Virus record (IMG/VR): IMGVR_UViG_2667527789_000018
Coordinates: 1-31,427 of that record
Strand: one strand, 5' to 3'
Source of the DNA: a virus
Lineage: Duplodnaviria > Heunggongvirae > Uroviricota > Caudoviricetes
DNA length: 31,427 bases
Shown here: positions 1 to 31,427 of the stretch, in pieces
How positions within the stretch are numbered: the first letter of the stretch is position 1
Layout: every line of letters begins with the position of its first letter
Position numbers and translations under genes: made by a program
Notes under the pieces: model-generated
Seen by the model: only the letters and a program-made list of their open reading frames with translations
Database searches by the model: none
Told to the model about the DNA's origin: nothing

Positions 1-1011
1 TTATAACGTCACTCCGCCTTTTAGTGGATTCAGAGCGACGGCATTTTGCAGATAGTCAGGCGCAAGGTGCGCATAGGCCATCGTCTGCTGAATGCTCGCA
101 TGTCCCAGAATCTGTTGCAGTGCGATTATATTGCCCCCATTCATCATGAAATGGCTTGCGAATGTATGCCGCAGGATGTGGGTTGCCTGATTGGGTGGTA
201 TATCAGGTTTCACTCTGCGTAAAATCCCGCAAAATTTCTCATAATCAACTTTGAATAATTTGGCGCTGGCCTCCTCTTTAACTTTTTTCTCCAGTTCCTC
301 AGAAATCGGCACGGTTCGCTTTTTACCGTTTTTGGTTTTCAGGAAGGTAACCCTGCAATTTGTAATCTGTGCTGGTTTTAGCGTGGCAACTTCCGTCCAT
401 CTTCCTCCAGTGCTCAGACATAAAAGCGCGACAAGTAAGTCATCACCAGCCAAAACATTTAACAGTTTTTCGATTTCTGCTTTTTCCAGGAACGTCATTT
501 CAGGGTTGGCCTCCGCCAGTGGCGGCAGTCCGTGAATTGGGTGTTGCCCGGAAAATTCATCCAATTGAATTAATTTTGTGAACATGCCGGATAATCTGTA
601 CATGTCACGGTTTATCGTTGAGGCACTGATACCATCACGTAGTCGCATGGAACGATAATCCATCAAAGCCCTTTTGCTCATCCTGCTCACTGGTATATCA
701 CCTATGCCGCTGATGGTTTTGAGTAGATGATTAAACTCTTTTGTTCCATGCTCGTGGTTTTGCCCGTGATATTTCCACCAGATGTCCAGCAACTCACTCA
801 AAGTCCGGCGGTCTGCTCGCTGGCCTCCCCATTCTTTCTGACTGGCATTGGCGATTGTGTATCGCTCAAATGCTAGTGCTTCAGCTTTTCTTTCGAATTT
901 CCTGCGGATGCGTTTTCCGTCGCGACCGCGAGGTCTAATGTCCACTTCATAGCGACCATCATCGAGCTTCTTAATTGCCATAAGAAAGCCCTCCGGCGCT
1001 GTATTCACCAT
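1..1011 (-). CDS. int: tyrosine integrase (P2 Int family)
   Basis: 336-aa ORF ending at a TAA whose complement is bases 1-3; C-terminal tyrosine-recombinase-like region (HILRHTFASH...GHASIQQTMAYAHL); located at prophage end beside repressor. An alternative ATG at 981 (MAIKKLDDGRYEV) has a better SD (GGAGGG), so the true start may be 981. Confidence 0.9.
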   Translation of the reverse strand: MVNTAPEGFLMAIKKLDDGRYEVDIRPRGRDGKRIRRKFERKAEALAFERYTIANASQKEWGGQRADRRTLSELLDIWWKYHGQNHEHGTKEFNHLLKTISGIGDIPVSRMSKRALMDYRSMRLRDGISASTINRDMYRLSGMFTKLIQLDEFSGQHPIHGLPPLAEANPEMTFLEKAEIEKLLNVLAGDDLLVALLCLSTGGRWTEVATLKPAQITNCRVTFLKTKNGKKRTVPISEELEKKVKEEASAKLFKVDYEKFCGILRRVKPDIPPNQATHILRHTFASHFMMNGGNIIALQQILGHASIQQTMAYAHLAPDYLQNAVALNPLKGGVTL

Positions 1012-5895: not shown

Positions 5896-7734
5896 ATGAG
5901 CGAGTTCGATGTTTTTTCTATTTCAGTTGATGATTTTAAAAAAAGTGAGTACGCCAGTATATTGTTACCACCAAGAAGCCATTCTTATTTTGAAATGGAA
6001 TCTTATTTTTTTCAGTTGTTGTCATTTTATAAGCAAAAAAAAGATGTGAGTTCTTGGAGGGTTTGCTATTTATTACGTTCGTTATTTAGTTTAAAATTTT
6101 CTAAGTCTGGTGATATTATCGACTTTGAGTCTAAAATCATTCTCTATCCTAAGCGAGGTTATAGACCTTCAGATTACAAGGATAATTATTTAACCATATT
6201 AACTTGTATTAAAGAAAATACTGACAACCCTTATATTATATCTAGGGTGTGTGATGTTTTATGGATAAATAACCGTAAGGATATAGATTCTGCTAATAAA
6301 GCAATAGAGTCATATGCTCTAATGATTAATGATGCTTGTGATACTTTGTTAGAAAAAAAGGAATCAGGTGACATCCATGTTTTTGATGTCGTTGACTGCT
6401 TGGATAGAGGTATTACAATATCGCGCATGCTTATTGGCAGGAAAAAACAACTGCAAGGAGGGATAGTTGACTCGACGTTAAGGCTATATCATATATTAAT
6501 AGATTCTAGTATATTTATCGGTGTTTTAAGAATTTCTGAAATTCTTTATAAGAATAATTTATTGTGCCCCTTACAATTGGCTAAGAATGCAGAAAAGATA
6601 GCTGATGAGCATTGTGGAGCTTCTTATTTTGATGCTGTGAAAAAATTGTTTTATTTTGCGTCTGAATTATATGTTAAAAATGATATGGAAGAGCAAGGAA
6701 GAAGGTGCAAAATGAAAGCGACAGAAATAACATTGGCTCAATTTGAACAGTCTTCATCTCCAACATTGAAGGCTCATTGGCTAAGAGTTGCTCTTGGGGA
6801 ATTTAGAGCGATTGGTGGAATGAGTGAAAGGATTAAAGAGATTAAAGAGGAATTAAATTCTATTCGAGATCAAATCAATGATGAAATGTATTCCTTTGCA
6901 ATACCAATGGATCTTAGTGATGTTATCGCTCAGAAAGAGCATATTTATAATCAATTAAATTTCTCAGAAATAATTAAAAAATTAATCTCTAGATTTAAGG
7001 TTGTAAGTGCCAGTGAGATTATGGAAAGAGCTCGCTCTGATGCTAAGAGATATTTTTTTGTTAATGTGAGTGATACGGTTTTTTATGATGACAGAGGACG
7101 CGTTGTGGCAAGGCAACCACCTTTAGATTCTGCTGGGGATATAAGTCTAGATGATGCCTGTGTAAATTATTTAAGAACTAGTAATATTGAGCATCAGTTT
7201 TATGTTTATGGTGAGTTTGAAGTTGTTAGGCAAAGAGTGTTGTCTAGGTATTCATTAAATGAGAATACATTTGACCCAATCTCACAACAAAGTCTATTTG
7301 TTCCTCCTGGGTATGCGGAAATATTTTCTTTAGGATTTCTTAAGCTTTGGCAGGGGGATTATGTGTCTGCCTGTTATTTGTTGTTGCCGCAGTTGGAGAA
7401 TTCAATTAGATGGATTTTAGAATTAAGAAGAAAAGAAACAACGAAAATAGATGTGTCACTTTTTGAGGAGGCTACTAGTCTATCTCAAATGCTTGCAAAT
7501 TATAAGAGTGAAATGGAAGGTATTTTTGGGAGTGATCATGTATTGACTATGGATTTATTGTTCAATATGAAAGGTGGTGCTGCAATTAGACACACGATGG
7601 CTCATGGCAGGTATACTGTAAATCATTGTTATCAACCAACTTCAGTTTTTGCCTGTGTCTTTATCTTTTATTTAACTTGTTTGCCTTTATTTAGTGTATG
7701 GGAAGATAAAGTTGAACCTTATCTGACTGATTAA
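5896..7734 (+). CDS. AT-rich accessory (cargo) protein of unknown function, 612 aa; candidate anti-phage defence protein
   Basis: ATG 5896 preceded by AGGTGAGGA; about 32% G+C in a 60-nt sample versus about 57% in phage genes; occupies the tin/old position of P2; no P-loop; C-terminal R-x4-H motif (AIRHTMAHGRY). Confidence 0.8.
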   Translation: MSEFDVFSISVDDFKKSEYASILLPPRSHSYFEMESYFFQLLSFYKQKKDVSSWRVCYLLRSLFSLKFSKSGDIIDFESKIILYPKRGYRPSDYKDNYLTILTCIKENTDNPYIISRVCDVLWINNRKDIDSANKAIESYALMINDACDTLLEKKESGDIHVFDVVDCLDRGITISRMLIGRKKQLQGGIVDSTLRLYHILIDSSIFIGVLRISEILYKNNLLCPLQLAKNAEKIADEHCGASYFDAVKKLFYFASELYVKNDMEEQGRRCKMKATEITLAQFEQSSSPTLKAHWLRVALGEFRAIGGMSERIKEIKEELNSIRDQINDEMYSFAIPMDLSDVIAQKEHIYNQLNFSEIIKKLISRFKVVSASEIMERARSDAKRYFFVNVSDTVFYDDRGRVVARQPPLDSAGDISLDDACVNYLRTSNIEHQFYVYGEFEVVRQRVLSRYSLNENTFDPISQQSLFVPPGYAEIFSLGFLKLWQGDYVSACYLLLPQLENSIRWILELRRKETTKIDVSLFEEATSLSQMLANYKSEMEGIFGSDHVLTMDLLFNMKGGAAIRHTMAHGRYTVNHCYQPTSVFACVFIFYLTCLPLFSVWEDKVEPYLTD

Positions 7735-22762: not shown

Positions 22763-23356
22763 ATGTTTACTAAGCGACGATTAAAAAATATTAACTGGGA
22801 GGCAAGTTCAGTGATTCTTGCTATGGTTCTCTTTGTTGGAAATATATTTTATACAAATCATCGTGATGATATAAACATGGAGGCTGAGAGAGACAGTATC
22901 AGAACAATGTTTGCATATGAAATCGCTAATAACCATCGCGCTCTCACTTTTCTTGATAAAACGAGACATATTGGCTTTGACGAAAATTCGGAGCATTTTG
23001 TTGGCGAGCCTTTTGCCATTAATGTCAAATCATTAGGGGGACCTCGCTTACAGATTGCATTAAACCAGACTGATAAAGTGTTTAAATCCTACTTCGGCGA
23101 ATTAAGTAAGCTTGATAAAGAGGATGTTACTCTTCTTATGGACTATTACCATGAGCAAAGCATCCTGCTGGAGCGTGTAAAATCTACGTTACAGAAGATG
23201 AAAAGTGGTAATGATATTAAAGTTGATATTGATGGTTACTTATTAGAAGAACACTTCATGAATGAGCTTAATCTTTCTAATATATTGCTTAAACGCTATA
23301 GCTATTTATTATCACAACACGCTAAAGAACATAAAACAAAAGATTTACATAATTGA
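22763..23356 (+). CDS. AT-rich accessory membrane-anchored protein, 197 aa, in the Z/fun hotspot; candidate superinfection-exclusion or defence protein
   Basis: About 32% G+C in a 60-nt sample; N-terminal hydrophobic helix (SSVILAMVLFVGNIFY) then a charged soluble domain; occupies the G-FI intergenic slot where P2 carries Z/fun. Confidence 0.7.
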   Translation: MFTKRRLKNINWEASSVILAMVLFVGNIFYTNHRDDINMEAERDSIRTMFAYEIANNHRALTFLDKTRHIGFDENSEHFVGEPFAINVKSLGGPRLQIALNQTDKVFKSYFGELSKLDKEDVTLLMDYYHEQSILLERVKSTLQKMKSGNDIKVDIDGYLLEEHFMNELNLSNILLKRYSYLLSQHAKEHKTKDLHN

Positions 23357-30069: not shown

Positions 30070-30288
30070 ATGTTTCATTGTCCTTTATGCCAGCATGCCG
30101 CACATGCGCGTACAAGCCGCTATATCACTGACACGACAAAAGAGCGTTATCATCAGTGCCAGAACGTGAATTGCAGTGCCACGTTCATCACTTATGAGTC
30201 GGTACAGCGATACATCGTGAAGCCGGGAGAAGTCCACGCCGTAAGGCCGCACCCGTTGCCGTCAGGGCAGCAAATTATGTGGATGTGA
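30070..30288 (+). CDS. ogr: late gene transcriptional activator Ogr (zinc finger)
   Basis: ATG at 30070 (MFHCPLCQHAAH...) gives 72 aa with CPLC...C-x4-C zinc-binding cysteines; the tracked ORF begins upstream at 30007. Confidence 0.9.
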   Translation: MFHCPLCQHAAHARTSRYITDTTKERYHQCQNVNCSATFITYESVQRYIVKPGEVHAVRPHPLPSGQQIMWM

Positions 30289-30298
30289 TCACAAAAAT

Positions 30299-30326
30299 AG
30301 CCCCTCAGTTGAGGGGCTTTATTTAT
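30299..30326 (+). terminator. rho-independent terminator after ogr
   Basis: AGCCCCTC-AGTT-GAGGGGCT hairpin (30299-30318) followed by TTATTTAT. Confidence 0.75.
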
Positions 30327-30331
30327 GGTCG

Positions 30332-30351
30332 ATGTGGACGCTATGTGGACG
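30332..30351 (+). repeat. tandem direct repeat ATGTGGACG x2 (candidate integrase arm-type binding sites of attR)
   Basis: ATGTGGACG at 30332-30340 and 30343-30351 with 11-bp periodicity, between ogr and host DNA. Confidence 0.45.
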
Positions 30352-30416
30352 GTGGTTGATATAAATCCATTTATATCATCAGGTTAGGTGCTTTTTTGTG
30401 ACACCATCCCTGTCTT

Positions 30417-30443
30417 CCCCCACATGATGTGGGGGTTTTTTTT
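30417..30443 (+). terminator. strong rho-independent terminator (possibly the end of a 3'UTR-derived sRNA of the upstream host gene)
   Basis: CCCCCAC-ATGAT-GTGGGGG hairpin followed by an 8-nt T run, 80 bp upstream of fieF. Confidence 0.75.
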
Positions 30444-30524
30444 ATCCTCAATTTGCCTGCTGCTTAATGCATTGCAGATGATTTGCTTCCGTTATACTAG
30501 CGTCAGTTGATAGCGGGAGTATTT

Positions 30525-31427
30525 ATGAATCAATCTTATGGACGGCTGGTCAGTCGGGCGGCGATTGCTGCGACGGCGATGGCTTCGCTGCTATTGCTGA
30601 TTAAAATTTTTGCATGGTGGTATACCGGGTCGGTGAGTATTCTCGCCGCGCTGGTGGATTCGCTGGTGGATATCGGCGCGTCGTTGACGAATTTATTGGT
30701 GGTGCGATATTCCCTGCAACCTGCCGACGATAATCACTCGTTTGGTCACGGTAAAGCTGAGTCCCTCGCGGCGCTGGCGCAAAGTATGTTTATCTCCGGT
30801 TCGGCACTATTCCTGTTTTTGACGGGTATTCAACATCTGATATCTCCAACACCGATGACAGATCCAGGCGTCGGGGTTATCGTGACAATTGTGGCGCTAA
30901 TTTGTACGATTATCCTTGTCTCGTTTCAGCGTTGGGTGGTGCGGCGGACGCAAAGCCAGGCGGTGCGGGCTGATATGCTACATTACCAGTCTGATGTTAT
31001 GATGAACGGCGCAATTCTGCTGGCGCTGGGGTTGTCCTGGTACGGCTGGCATCGCGCCGATGCTCTGTTTGCATTGGGAATCGGCATCTATATTTTATAT
31101 AGCGCGTTACGCATGGGATATGAGGCGGTACAGTCATTACTGGATCGCGCATTGCCTGATGAGGAACGGCAAGAAATTATTGATATCGTGACTTCCTGGC
31201 CGGGTGTTAGCGGCGCTCACGATCTTCGCACGCGGCAGTCAGGGCCGACCCGCTTTATTCAGATTCATTTGGAAATGGAAGACTCTCTGCCTTTGGTTCA
31301 GGCACATATGGTGGCGGATCAGGTAGAGCAGGCTATTTTACGGCGTTTTCCGGGATCGGATGTAATTATCCATCAGGACCCCTGTTCCGTCGTACCCAGG
31401 GAGGGTAAACGGTCTATGCTTTCATAA
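30525..31427 (+). CDS. fieF: cation diffusion facilitator ferrous-iron/zinc efflux transporter FieF (YiiP)
   Basis: 300 aa from ATG 30525 ([25 protein letters not shown]...), recognised as enterobacterial FieF; CDF-type [10 protein letters not shown] motif; the tracked ORF begins at upstream TTG 30507. Confidence 0.92.

Follow-up and report, generated by a model that had tools for sequence, protein, structure and literature searches.

The terminator hairpin located just upstream of fieF in the 31,427-nt stretch of DNA analysed here (hereafter the window) is, with an estimated probability of about 0.88, the attR copy of the terminator of the host small RNA (sRNA) CpxQ, generated when a P2-like phage of the WPhi/L-413C type integrated inside this sRNA, which is encoded by the cpxP 3'UTR. 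The attachment site, the sRNA and the kind of arrangement were all known already, and the new elements are the overlay of the site on CpxQ and the direction of strand exchange deduced from a single-nucleotide polymorphism (SNP). A phage attachment site published as intergenic is re-annotated here as lying inside a well-studied regulatory RNA.

The window shows a 100% match to Escherichia coli RM11911 (accession number NZ_CP044313.1), for which the PGAP annotation gives the gene order cpxA-cpxR-cpxP-(int ... ogr)-fieF-pfkA with cpxP and fieF separated by a P2-like prophage of 30.6 kb that extends from int to ogr; in a K-12-like genome devoid of the prophage fieF comes directly after cpxP. The sequence-only reading had named cpxP as the host gene preceding fieF on the same strand, with a different left-hand gene named as a reason to abandon the idea, and it is indeed cpxP that is annotated to the left of the prophage in RM11911. 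Positions in the window are obtained by subtracting 2602 from those in the RM11911 locus (L001). Base 1 of the window belongs to the stop codon of int, the DNA of which is 99.3-99.9% identical to the int genes of L-413C and other P2-like phages, and attL lies just outside the window, to the left. The features discussed below are listed in Table 1. Apart from these, the window contains a gene coding for a 612-aa protein (5896-7734, plus strand) between the replication and portal genes, i.e. in a P2 cargo hotspot, for the product of which matches were obtained to Pfam DUF7380 and, with E = 1.4e-73, to PDC-S39, a candidate defence system of PADLOC. In the other P2 cargo hotspot, located between the tail-fibre assembly and tail sheath genes, there is a hypothetical gene of 197 aa (22763-23356, plus strand) for which Pfam and PADLOC searches gave no match.

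Table 1 Features of the window relevant to the attachment site (positions are those of the window).
Feature	Position	Strand	Basis
Tyrosine integrase gene (int)	1-981	-	PGAP annotation of RM11911, ORF list
ogr, late-gene activator, last phage gene before attR	30070-30288	+	ORF; PGAP 'ogrK' at L001 32672-32890
Terminator-like hairpin after ogr	30299-30318	both	Terminator scan, RNA fold (z = -4.1), inverted-repeat search
Two direct repeats ATGTGGACG, 11 bp apart, P2-type integrase arm-binding sites of the P arm	30332-30351	+	
Perfect 10-bp palindrome TGATATAAAT/ATTTATATCA, P arm, between the Int arm repeats and the core	30357-30378		Inverted-repeat search
Common core, attR copy, 47 bp, GACACCATCCCTGTCTTCCCCCACATGATGTGGGGGTTTTTTTTATC = CpxQ nt 15-58 + ATC	30400-30446	+	
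Candidate strand-exchange region GACA-ccatccc-TGTC (attB: AGACA-N7-TGTCT)	30400-30414		Inverted-repeat search, RNA fold
Intrinsic terminator: hairpin (30417-30435) and T8 (30436-30443)	30417-30443	+	Terminator scan, RNA fold
Polymorphic loop base	30427	+	A in the window, all phage attP and all attL seen; C in K-12-like hosts and ~19% of attR
Host intergenic DNA from the CpxQ terminator to fieF (fieF promoter region)	30447-30524	+	Identical to prophage-free genomes
fieF, host cation-efflux transporter gene	30525-31427	+	PGAP annotation, ORF

The hairpin was found exactly as the sequence-only reading had described it, namely CCCCCACATGATGTGGGGG followed by T8 on the plus strand. This motif occurs once in the window and had no matches in 100 shuffled sequences even with 3 mismatches allowed. 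According to the terminator scan, its 8-bp stem includes six G-C pairs, encloses a loop of 3 nt and is followed by a T8 tail; a G+C-rich stem-loop with a T-run directly after it is characteristic of intrinsic terminators. The 44-nt piece from 30400 to 30443 was folded with an energy of -16.5 kcal/mol (z = -2.9), which was equalled by only one of 200 shuffled sequences. Taken by itself, the terminator scan carries little weight, with six sites found in the region against 2.6 expected, and the hairpin is considered to stand above chance because the sequence from 30400 rightwards is conserved exactly in every one of the 5,426 complete E. coli genomes.

The end of the T-run is separated from the fieF ATG by 81 nt. 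As had also been pointed out, the hairpin lies beyond a separate ogr terminator and before the fieF promoter region. The T-tract of the ogr terminator is interrupted (TTTATTTAT), and in the free phage this hairpin would also stand downstream of the convergent int transcript. The fieF promoter has been located in the spacer between the CpxQ terminator and fieF (PMC4817254); the promoter scan of this spacer revealed no match to the strict sigma-70 consensus.

CpxQ is an Hfq-dependent sRNA of 58 nt which is cut by RNase E from the cpxP 3'UTR, covers nearly the whole of it and has its seed for nhaB and cfa at the 5' end (PMC6755755, PMC9438474), while its Rho-independent terminator is required for Hfq binding (PMC9753035). 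Its 5' end was placed here by counting the published 58 nt (PMC6755755) back from the end of the T-run, which gives UUUUCCUUGCCAUAGACACC... as the start, 9 nt past the cpxP stop codon, and supports the suggestion, made earlier from the letters alone, that the hairpin is the cpxP/CpxQ terminator. When the right-hand end of the window was aligned with the cpxP-fieF region, as had been proposed, the two matched from 30400 rightwards, and the matching part was found to agree with CpxQ at every base of nt 15-58, a stretch comprising the terminator hairpin and the U-tail that make up the Hfq module. Nucleotides 1-14, i.e. the 5' seed, are replaced by phage DNA in this copy, which is consequently short of the full 58 nt and follows ogr, with cpxP 30.6 kb upstream, instead of lying in the cpxP 3'UTR. 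It is the attL copy that lies there: host CpxQ nt 1-14 (UUUUCCUUGCCAUA) run directly into the intact core (GACACC...), and the two together constitute a full-length, presumably functional CpxQ with its terminator.

The core was defined by comparing the empty site, both prophage ends and free phage genomes, all of which share a block of 47 bp, written with its polymorphic base as GACACCATCCCTGTCTTCCCCCACATG(A/C)TGTGGGGGTTTTTTTTATC; the homology between the window and the empty sites has its left limit at 30400. Empty sites have one copy of the core, differing from that of the window by one base in the case of the K-12 attB. The attL core (2440-2486 in L001, 116-162 bp to the left of window base 1) is identical to the attR core, and the attP of WPhi, L-413C and Salmonella phage FSL SP-004 contains a core with 47 of 47 bp identical to that of the window. 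The palindrome in the P arm is likewise conserved in the attP of these three phages and probably serves for the binding of an accessory protein, either IHF or Cox. Immediately to the right of the palindrome there is TATCATCAGGTTA (30374-30386), which we take to resemble the IHF consensus. The two direct repeats are the only TGTGGACR sites in the whole window; they fit the arm consensus tgTGGaCa of P2-type integrases (PMC3448106) and have a matching pair in the P' arm at attL. With the core, the arm repeats and a second core copy at the other prophage end beside a P2-type tyrosine integrase, at the host site cpxP-fieF, the core of the window can be assigned to the attR of a WPhi-type P2-like prophage.

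The WPhi prophage of E. coli W has been listed at 'cpxP-fieF' (PMC3032704, Table 2), and WPhi and L-413C have been assigned to MG1655 coordinate 4104392 with identical cores (PMC3448106). WPhi and the Yersinia phage L-413C (P2-like, Peduovirus) possess the same 47-bp core and the same chromosomal site as the prophage of the window, with P arms 97-99% identical to that of the window and, in L-413C, 99.3% identity of the integrase gene, so that nothing essential differs and the prophage is one more member of this integration group. The P' arm beside the core varies among the members (aaatact, aattact or aatcact). In the published descriptions of WPhi and L-413C the site is intergenic and CpxQ is not mentioned; P2-type sites in general were described as lying mostly between genes, with no mention of sRNAs (PMC3448106), and a literature search of incomplete coverage found no paper tying the cpxP-fieF phage site to CpxQ.

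The single polymorphic base of the core, located in the hairpin loop, allows host and phage DNA to be told apart at the two junctions. Among 44 phage records there was none matching an attP query with C, the best hits all having one mismatch, and attP carries A in four of four IMG/VR contigs. Similarly, attL queries with C, made for the three common P'-arm types, gave no perfect match among the 5,426 E. coli genomes, and attL carries A in 24 of 24 IMG/VR contigs. At attR, C was found in about 150 of 790 E. coli lysogens, as estimated from identity bands together with a sample of 28 rows, six of which had C, and in 3 of the 23 attR seen in IMG/VR contigs. All six sampled lysogens with C at attR carry A at attL, three of them having the same IS-riddled prophage and probably representing one clone. 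Since the attL loop comes from the phage and the attR loop from the host, strands would have been exchanged 5' of the loop, and therefore the loop, the 3' arm and the T-run in the window would be those of the native host terminator. This distinction between native and donated DNA is drawn at a single polymorphic position, and for RM11911, which has A in both core copies, it is made by analogy with the other lysogens. The CpxQ of a lysogen would accordingly be expected to terminate in a phage-donated replica, with the native loop, 3' arm and T-run displaced to attR, 30.6 kb from cpxP.

As for the empty sites, A was found in about 3,700 genomes and C, which is also the allele of K-12 laboratory strains, in about 900, so the K-12 CpxQ sequence used in the literature represents the minor allele. 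It was considered whether A in empty sites is a scar of an earlier phage passage, and this was rejected, since excision restores the host allele if the crossover lies 5' of the loop and, besides, A is the majority allele. In hosts with the C allele (K-12-type), lysogenisation would alter one base of the CpxQ loop.

The position of the crossover could be read differently, with the terminator hairpin itself (CCCCCA-N7-TGGGGG) serving as the core site of Int and both copies being mosaic within the hairpin. No inverted repeat of the core is stronger than the hairpin, which also allows a reading with a spacer of 7 bp, but the A/C position would then sit in the overlap, where heterology should inhibit recombination and the heteroduplex should give both alleles at both junctions; instead, attL always has A and attR retains the host allele. 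Strand exchange in the hairpin was rejected on this segregation of the loop SNP and is regarded as quite unlikely. The only other inverted repeat of the core with a 7-bp spacer is GACA-ccatccc-TGTC at its left edge, which also forms the small first stem-loop of CpxQ in the RNA fold and is probably the crossover site, in agreement with the SNP, which places the exchange 5' of 30427.

Integration inside CpxQ may thus be pictured as follows. The phage attP brings a 47-bp replica, i.e. CpxQ nt 15-58 plus 3 bp, and the integrase would exchange strands near the left edge of the core, probably at the GACA-N7-TGTC inverted repeat. The resulting attL would consist of cpxP, CpxQ nt 1-14 and phage-donated DNA from the crossover rightwards, comprising at least the hairpin loop, the 3' arm and the T-run, and the cpxP mRNA of the lysogen would still have full-length CpxQ with its terminator at the 3' end. 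In turn, attR would read ogr, the P arm with the Int arm sites, the core with the native loop, 3' arm and T-run, and fieF, the promoter spacer of which is left untouched by the integration. Lysogens possess, in front of fieF, a second copy of the CpxQ terminator lacking the seed, which is likely to function as the substrate for excision and as a second terminator shielding fieF from phage transcription, the terminator activity of both core copies being predicted from their sequence.

It may also be asked whether lysogeny rewires CpxQ at the RNA level, either through a 44-nt mimic or sponge made by read-through from ogr or the late operon in both attP and attR, or through antisense transcription from int over CpxQ and cpxP, or through both, which as a whole we judge improbable. 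Concerning the antisense part, no terminator-like site was found on the int (minus) strand from the end of int to cpxP (the attL P' arm, 2487-2602 in L001), the first such site past int being a weak one inside cpxP, whereas in the free phage the bidirectional ogr terminator stands about 80 bp beyond the core. Because of this difference, int transcripts could run antisense over CpxQ, and only in lysogens. In P2 lysogens, the repressor gene C and int are co-transcribed from Pc, as the antisense reading assumes for this prophage. If it is true, the non-coding arm of the Cpx envelope-stress response would be dampened by the repressor-integrase antisense transcript in some 15% of E. coli strains.

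The read-through part, in its narrower form, would have the attR/attP copy expressed past the ogr terminator as a 5'-truncated CpxQ-like RNA acting as an Hfq-binding mimic or sponge. The terminator module relevant to Hfq and the middle of CpxQ are retained in the attR copy, and the interrupted T-tract of the ogr terminator makes some read-through plausible. Nevertheless, the promoter scan of the window gave no promoter-like site from the ogr terminator to the core, the attR copy is devoid of the 5' seed that serves for nhaB and cfa (PMC6755755), and the requirement that the core match attB and restore CpxQ is a sufficient reason for its conservation, all of which makes such an RNA highly improbable.

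The sequence-only reading had offered two alternatives, a prophage sitting between cpxP and its native terminator or a reconstituted 3' end, and each of them holds in part: the SNP suggests that at least the native loop, 3' arm and T-run were separated from cpxP, and the identical 47-bp copy at attL indicates that the end was rebuilt. If only the separation had occurred, cpxP would be cut off from its terminator and CpxQ would be lost or lengthened in lysogens. The 30.6-kb displacement of the native elements speaks for this, but in attL the identical core, with the hairpin, T8 and 3 bp more, comes directly after CpxQ nt 1-14, and the attL junctions of the IMG/VR contigs are built likewise in 24 of 24 cases, which leaves a truncated or extended CpxQ extremely unlikely. 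CpxQ thus appears to be rebuilt at attL rather than lost. The earlier suggestion that the prophage could alter CpxQ production is weakened, since the CpxQ sequence is unchanged in RM11911, and its expression in the lysogen may be expected to be unchanged as well.

A purely phage-derived terminator of ogr or the late operon with no host counterpart, which the identical hairpin downstream of ogr in the attP of free WPhi, L-413C and FSL SP-004 could suggest, is almost certainly the wrong explanation, being refuted by prophage-free genomes: the hairpin, which had been expected to be absent from them were it of phage origin, runs on without a break into cpxP to the left and fieF to the right, K-12-like genomes included, and occurs in each of the 5,426 genomes, of which about 4,600 have no junction, while the host loop allele C is seen at attR and never in attP.

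None of the 5,426 complete E. coli genomes lacks the core, and the attR junction was found in 787-790 and the attL junction in 794 of them, or about 15%. Thus, approximately one in seven complete E. coli genomes has a prophage at this site, and the CpxQ of these strains, the non-coding arm of the Cpx envelope-stress response, would end in phage-supplied DNA. For work with natural isolates this means that the 3' part of CpxQ will be encountered in two copies, both with probes and in read mapping. Beyond E. coli, several IMG/VR contigs (L017, L022, L023, L042, L051 and others) have the same core next to a cpxP 3' end or a downstream flank that is not of E. coli type, and phage FSL SP-004, from a different genus, has the identical core with diverged arms, which implies that the CpxQ site is used in several enterobacterial hosts. 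In both the IMG/VR junctions and FSL SP-004 the core is invariant while both arms drift.

Integration at the 3' ends of RNA genes is known for phage 186 in tRNA-Ile, Fels-2 and SopEPhi in ssrA, P2-like prophages at two sRNA genes, cyaR and rybB (PMC3032704, Table 2), and phages at sdsR, the locus of which has been called a phage attachment site (PMC3333887). As in these tRNA, tmRNA and sRNA sites (PMC3448106), the identity block in our case extends from a symmetric element, the probable crossover site, to just past the RNA 3' end, and the phage would supply a replacement 3' end with which the gene survives. Unlike them, CpxQ has no promoter of its own and is processed from an mRNA 3'UTR, and the rebuilt part would therefore also be the terminator of the protein-coding gene cpxP. 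An sRNA derived from a 3'UTR thereby joins the RNA genes used as integration targets, by the same logic as tRNA sites. The mode of integration is tidy but ordinary for phages, and the prophage is of the common P2-like (WPhi-type) kind.

CpxQ has no family in Rfam 15, and no Rfam match in the window reached its gathering score. The nearest model is RF02628, Hrs1 (Hfq-regulated sRNA 1 of Erwinia amylovora, encoded between cpxP and fieF), which is clearly homologous to CpxQ but matches it below the threshold and on the opposite strand, with 31.8 bits on the attR copy (30377-30443 of the window, minus strand) and 41.4 bits on the intact K-12 CpxQ (1472-1544 of L002, minus strand) against a gathering score of 56.4. 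Hrs1 has been described as lying on the same strand as cpxP and fieF (PMC4070566), and since the match is to the minus strand, the RF02628 model seems to represent the Erwinia CpxQ orthologue in reverse-complement orientation.

Decayed prophages were also observed at the same site in E. coli M217, B20159 and 298 (L005, L007 and L008) and in 2017.11.01CC (L006), one lineage containing IS150, ISEc22 and ISEc12 and one strain keeping only an ogr-int remnant; both att cores are intact in each of them.
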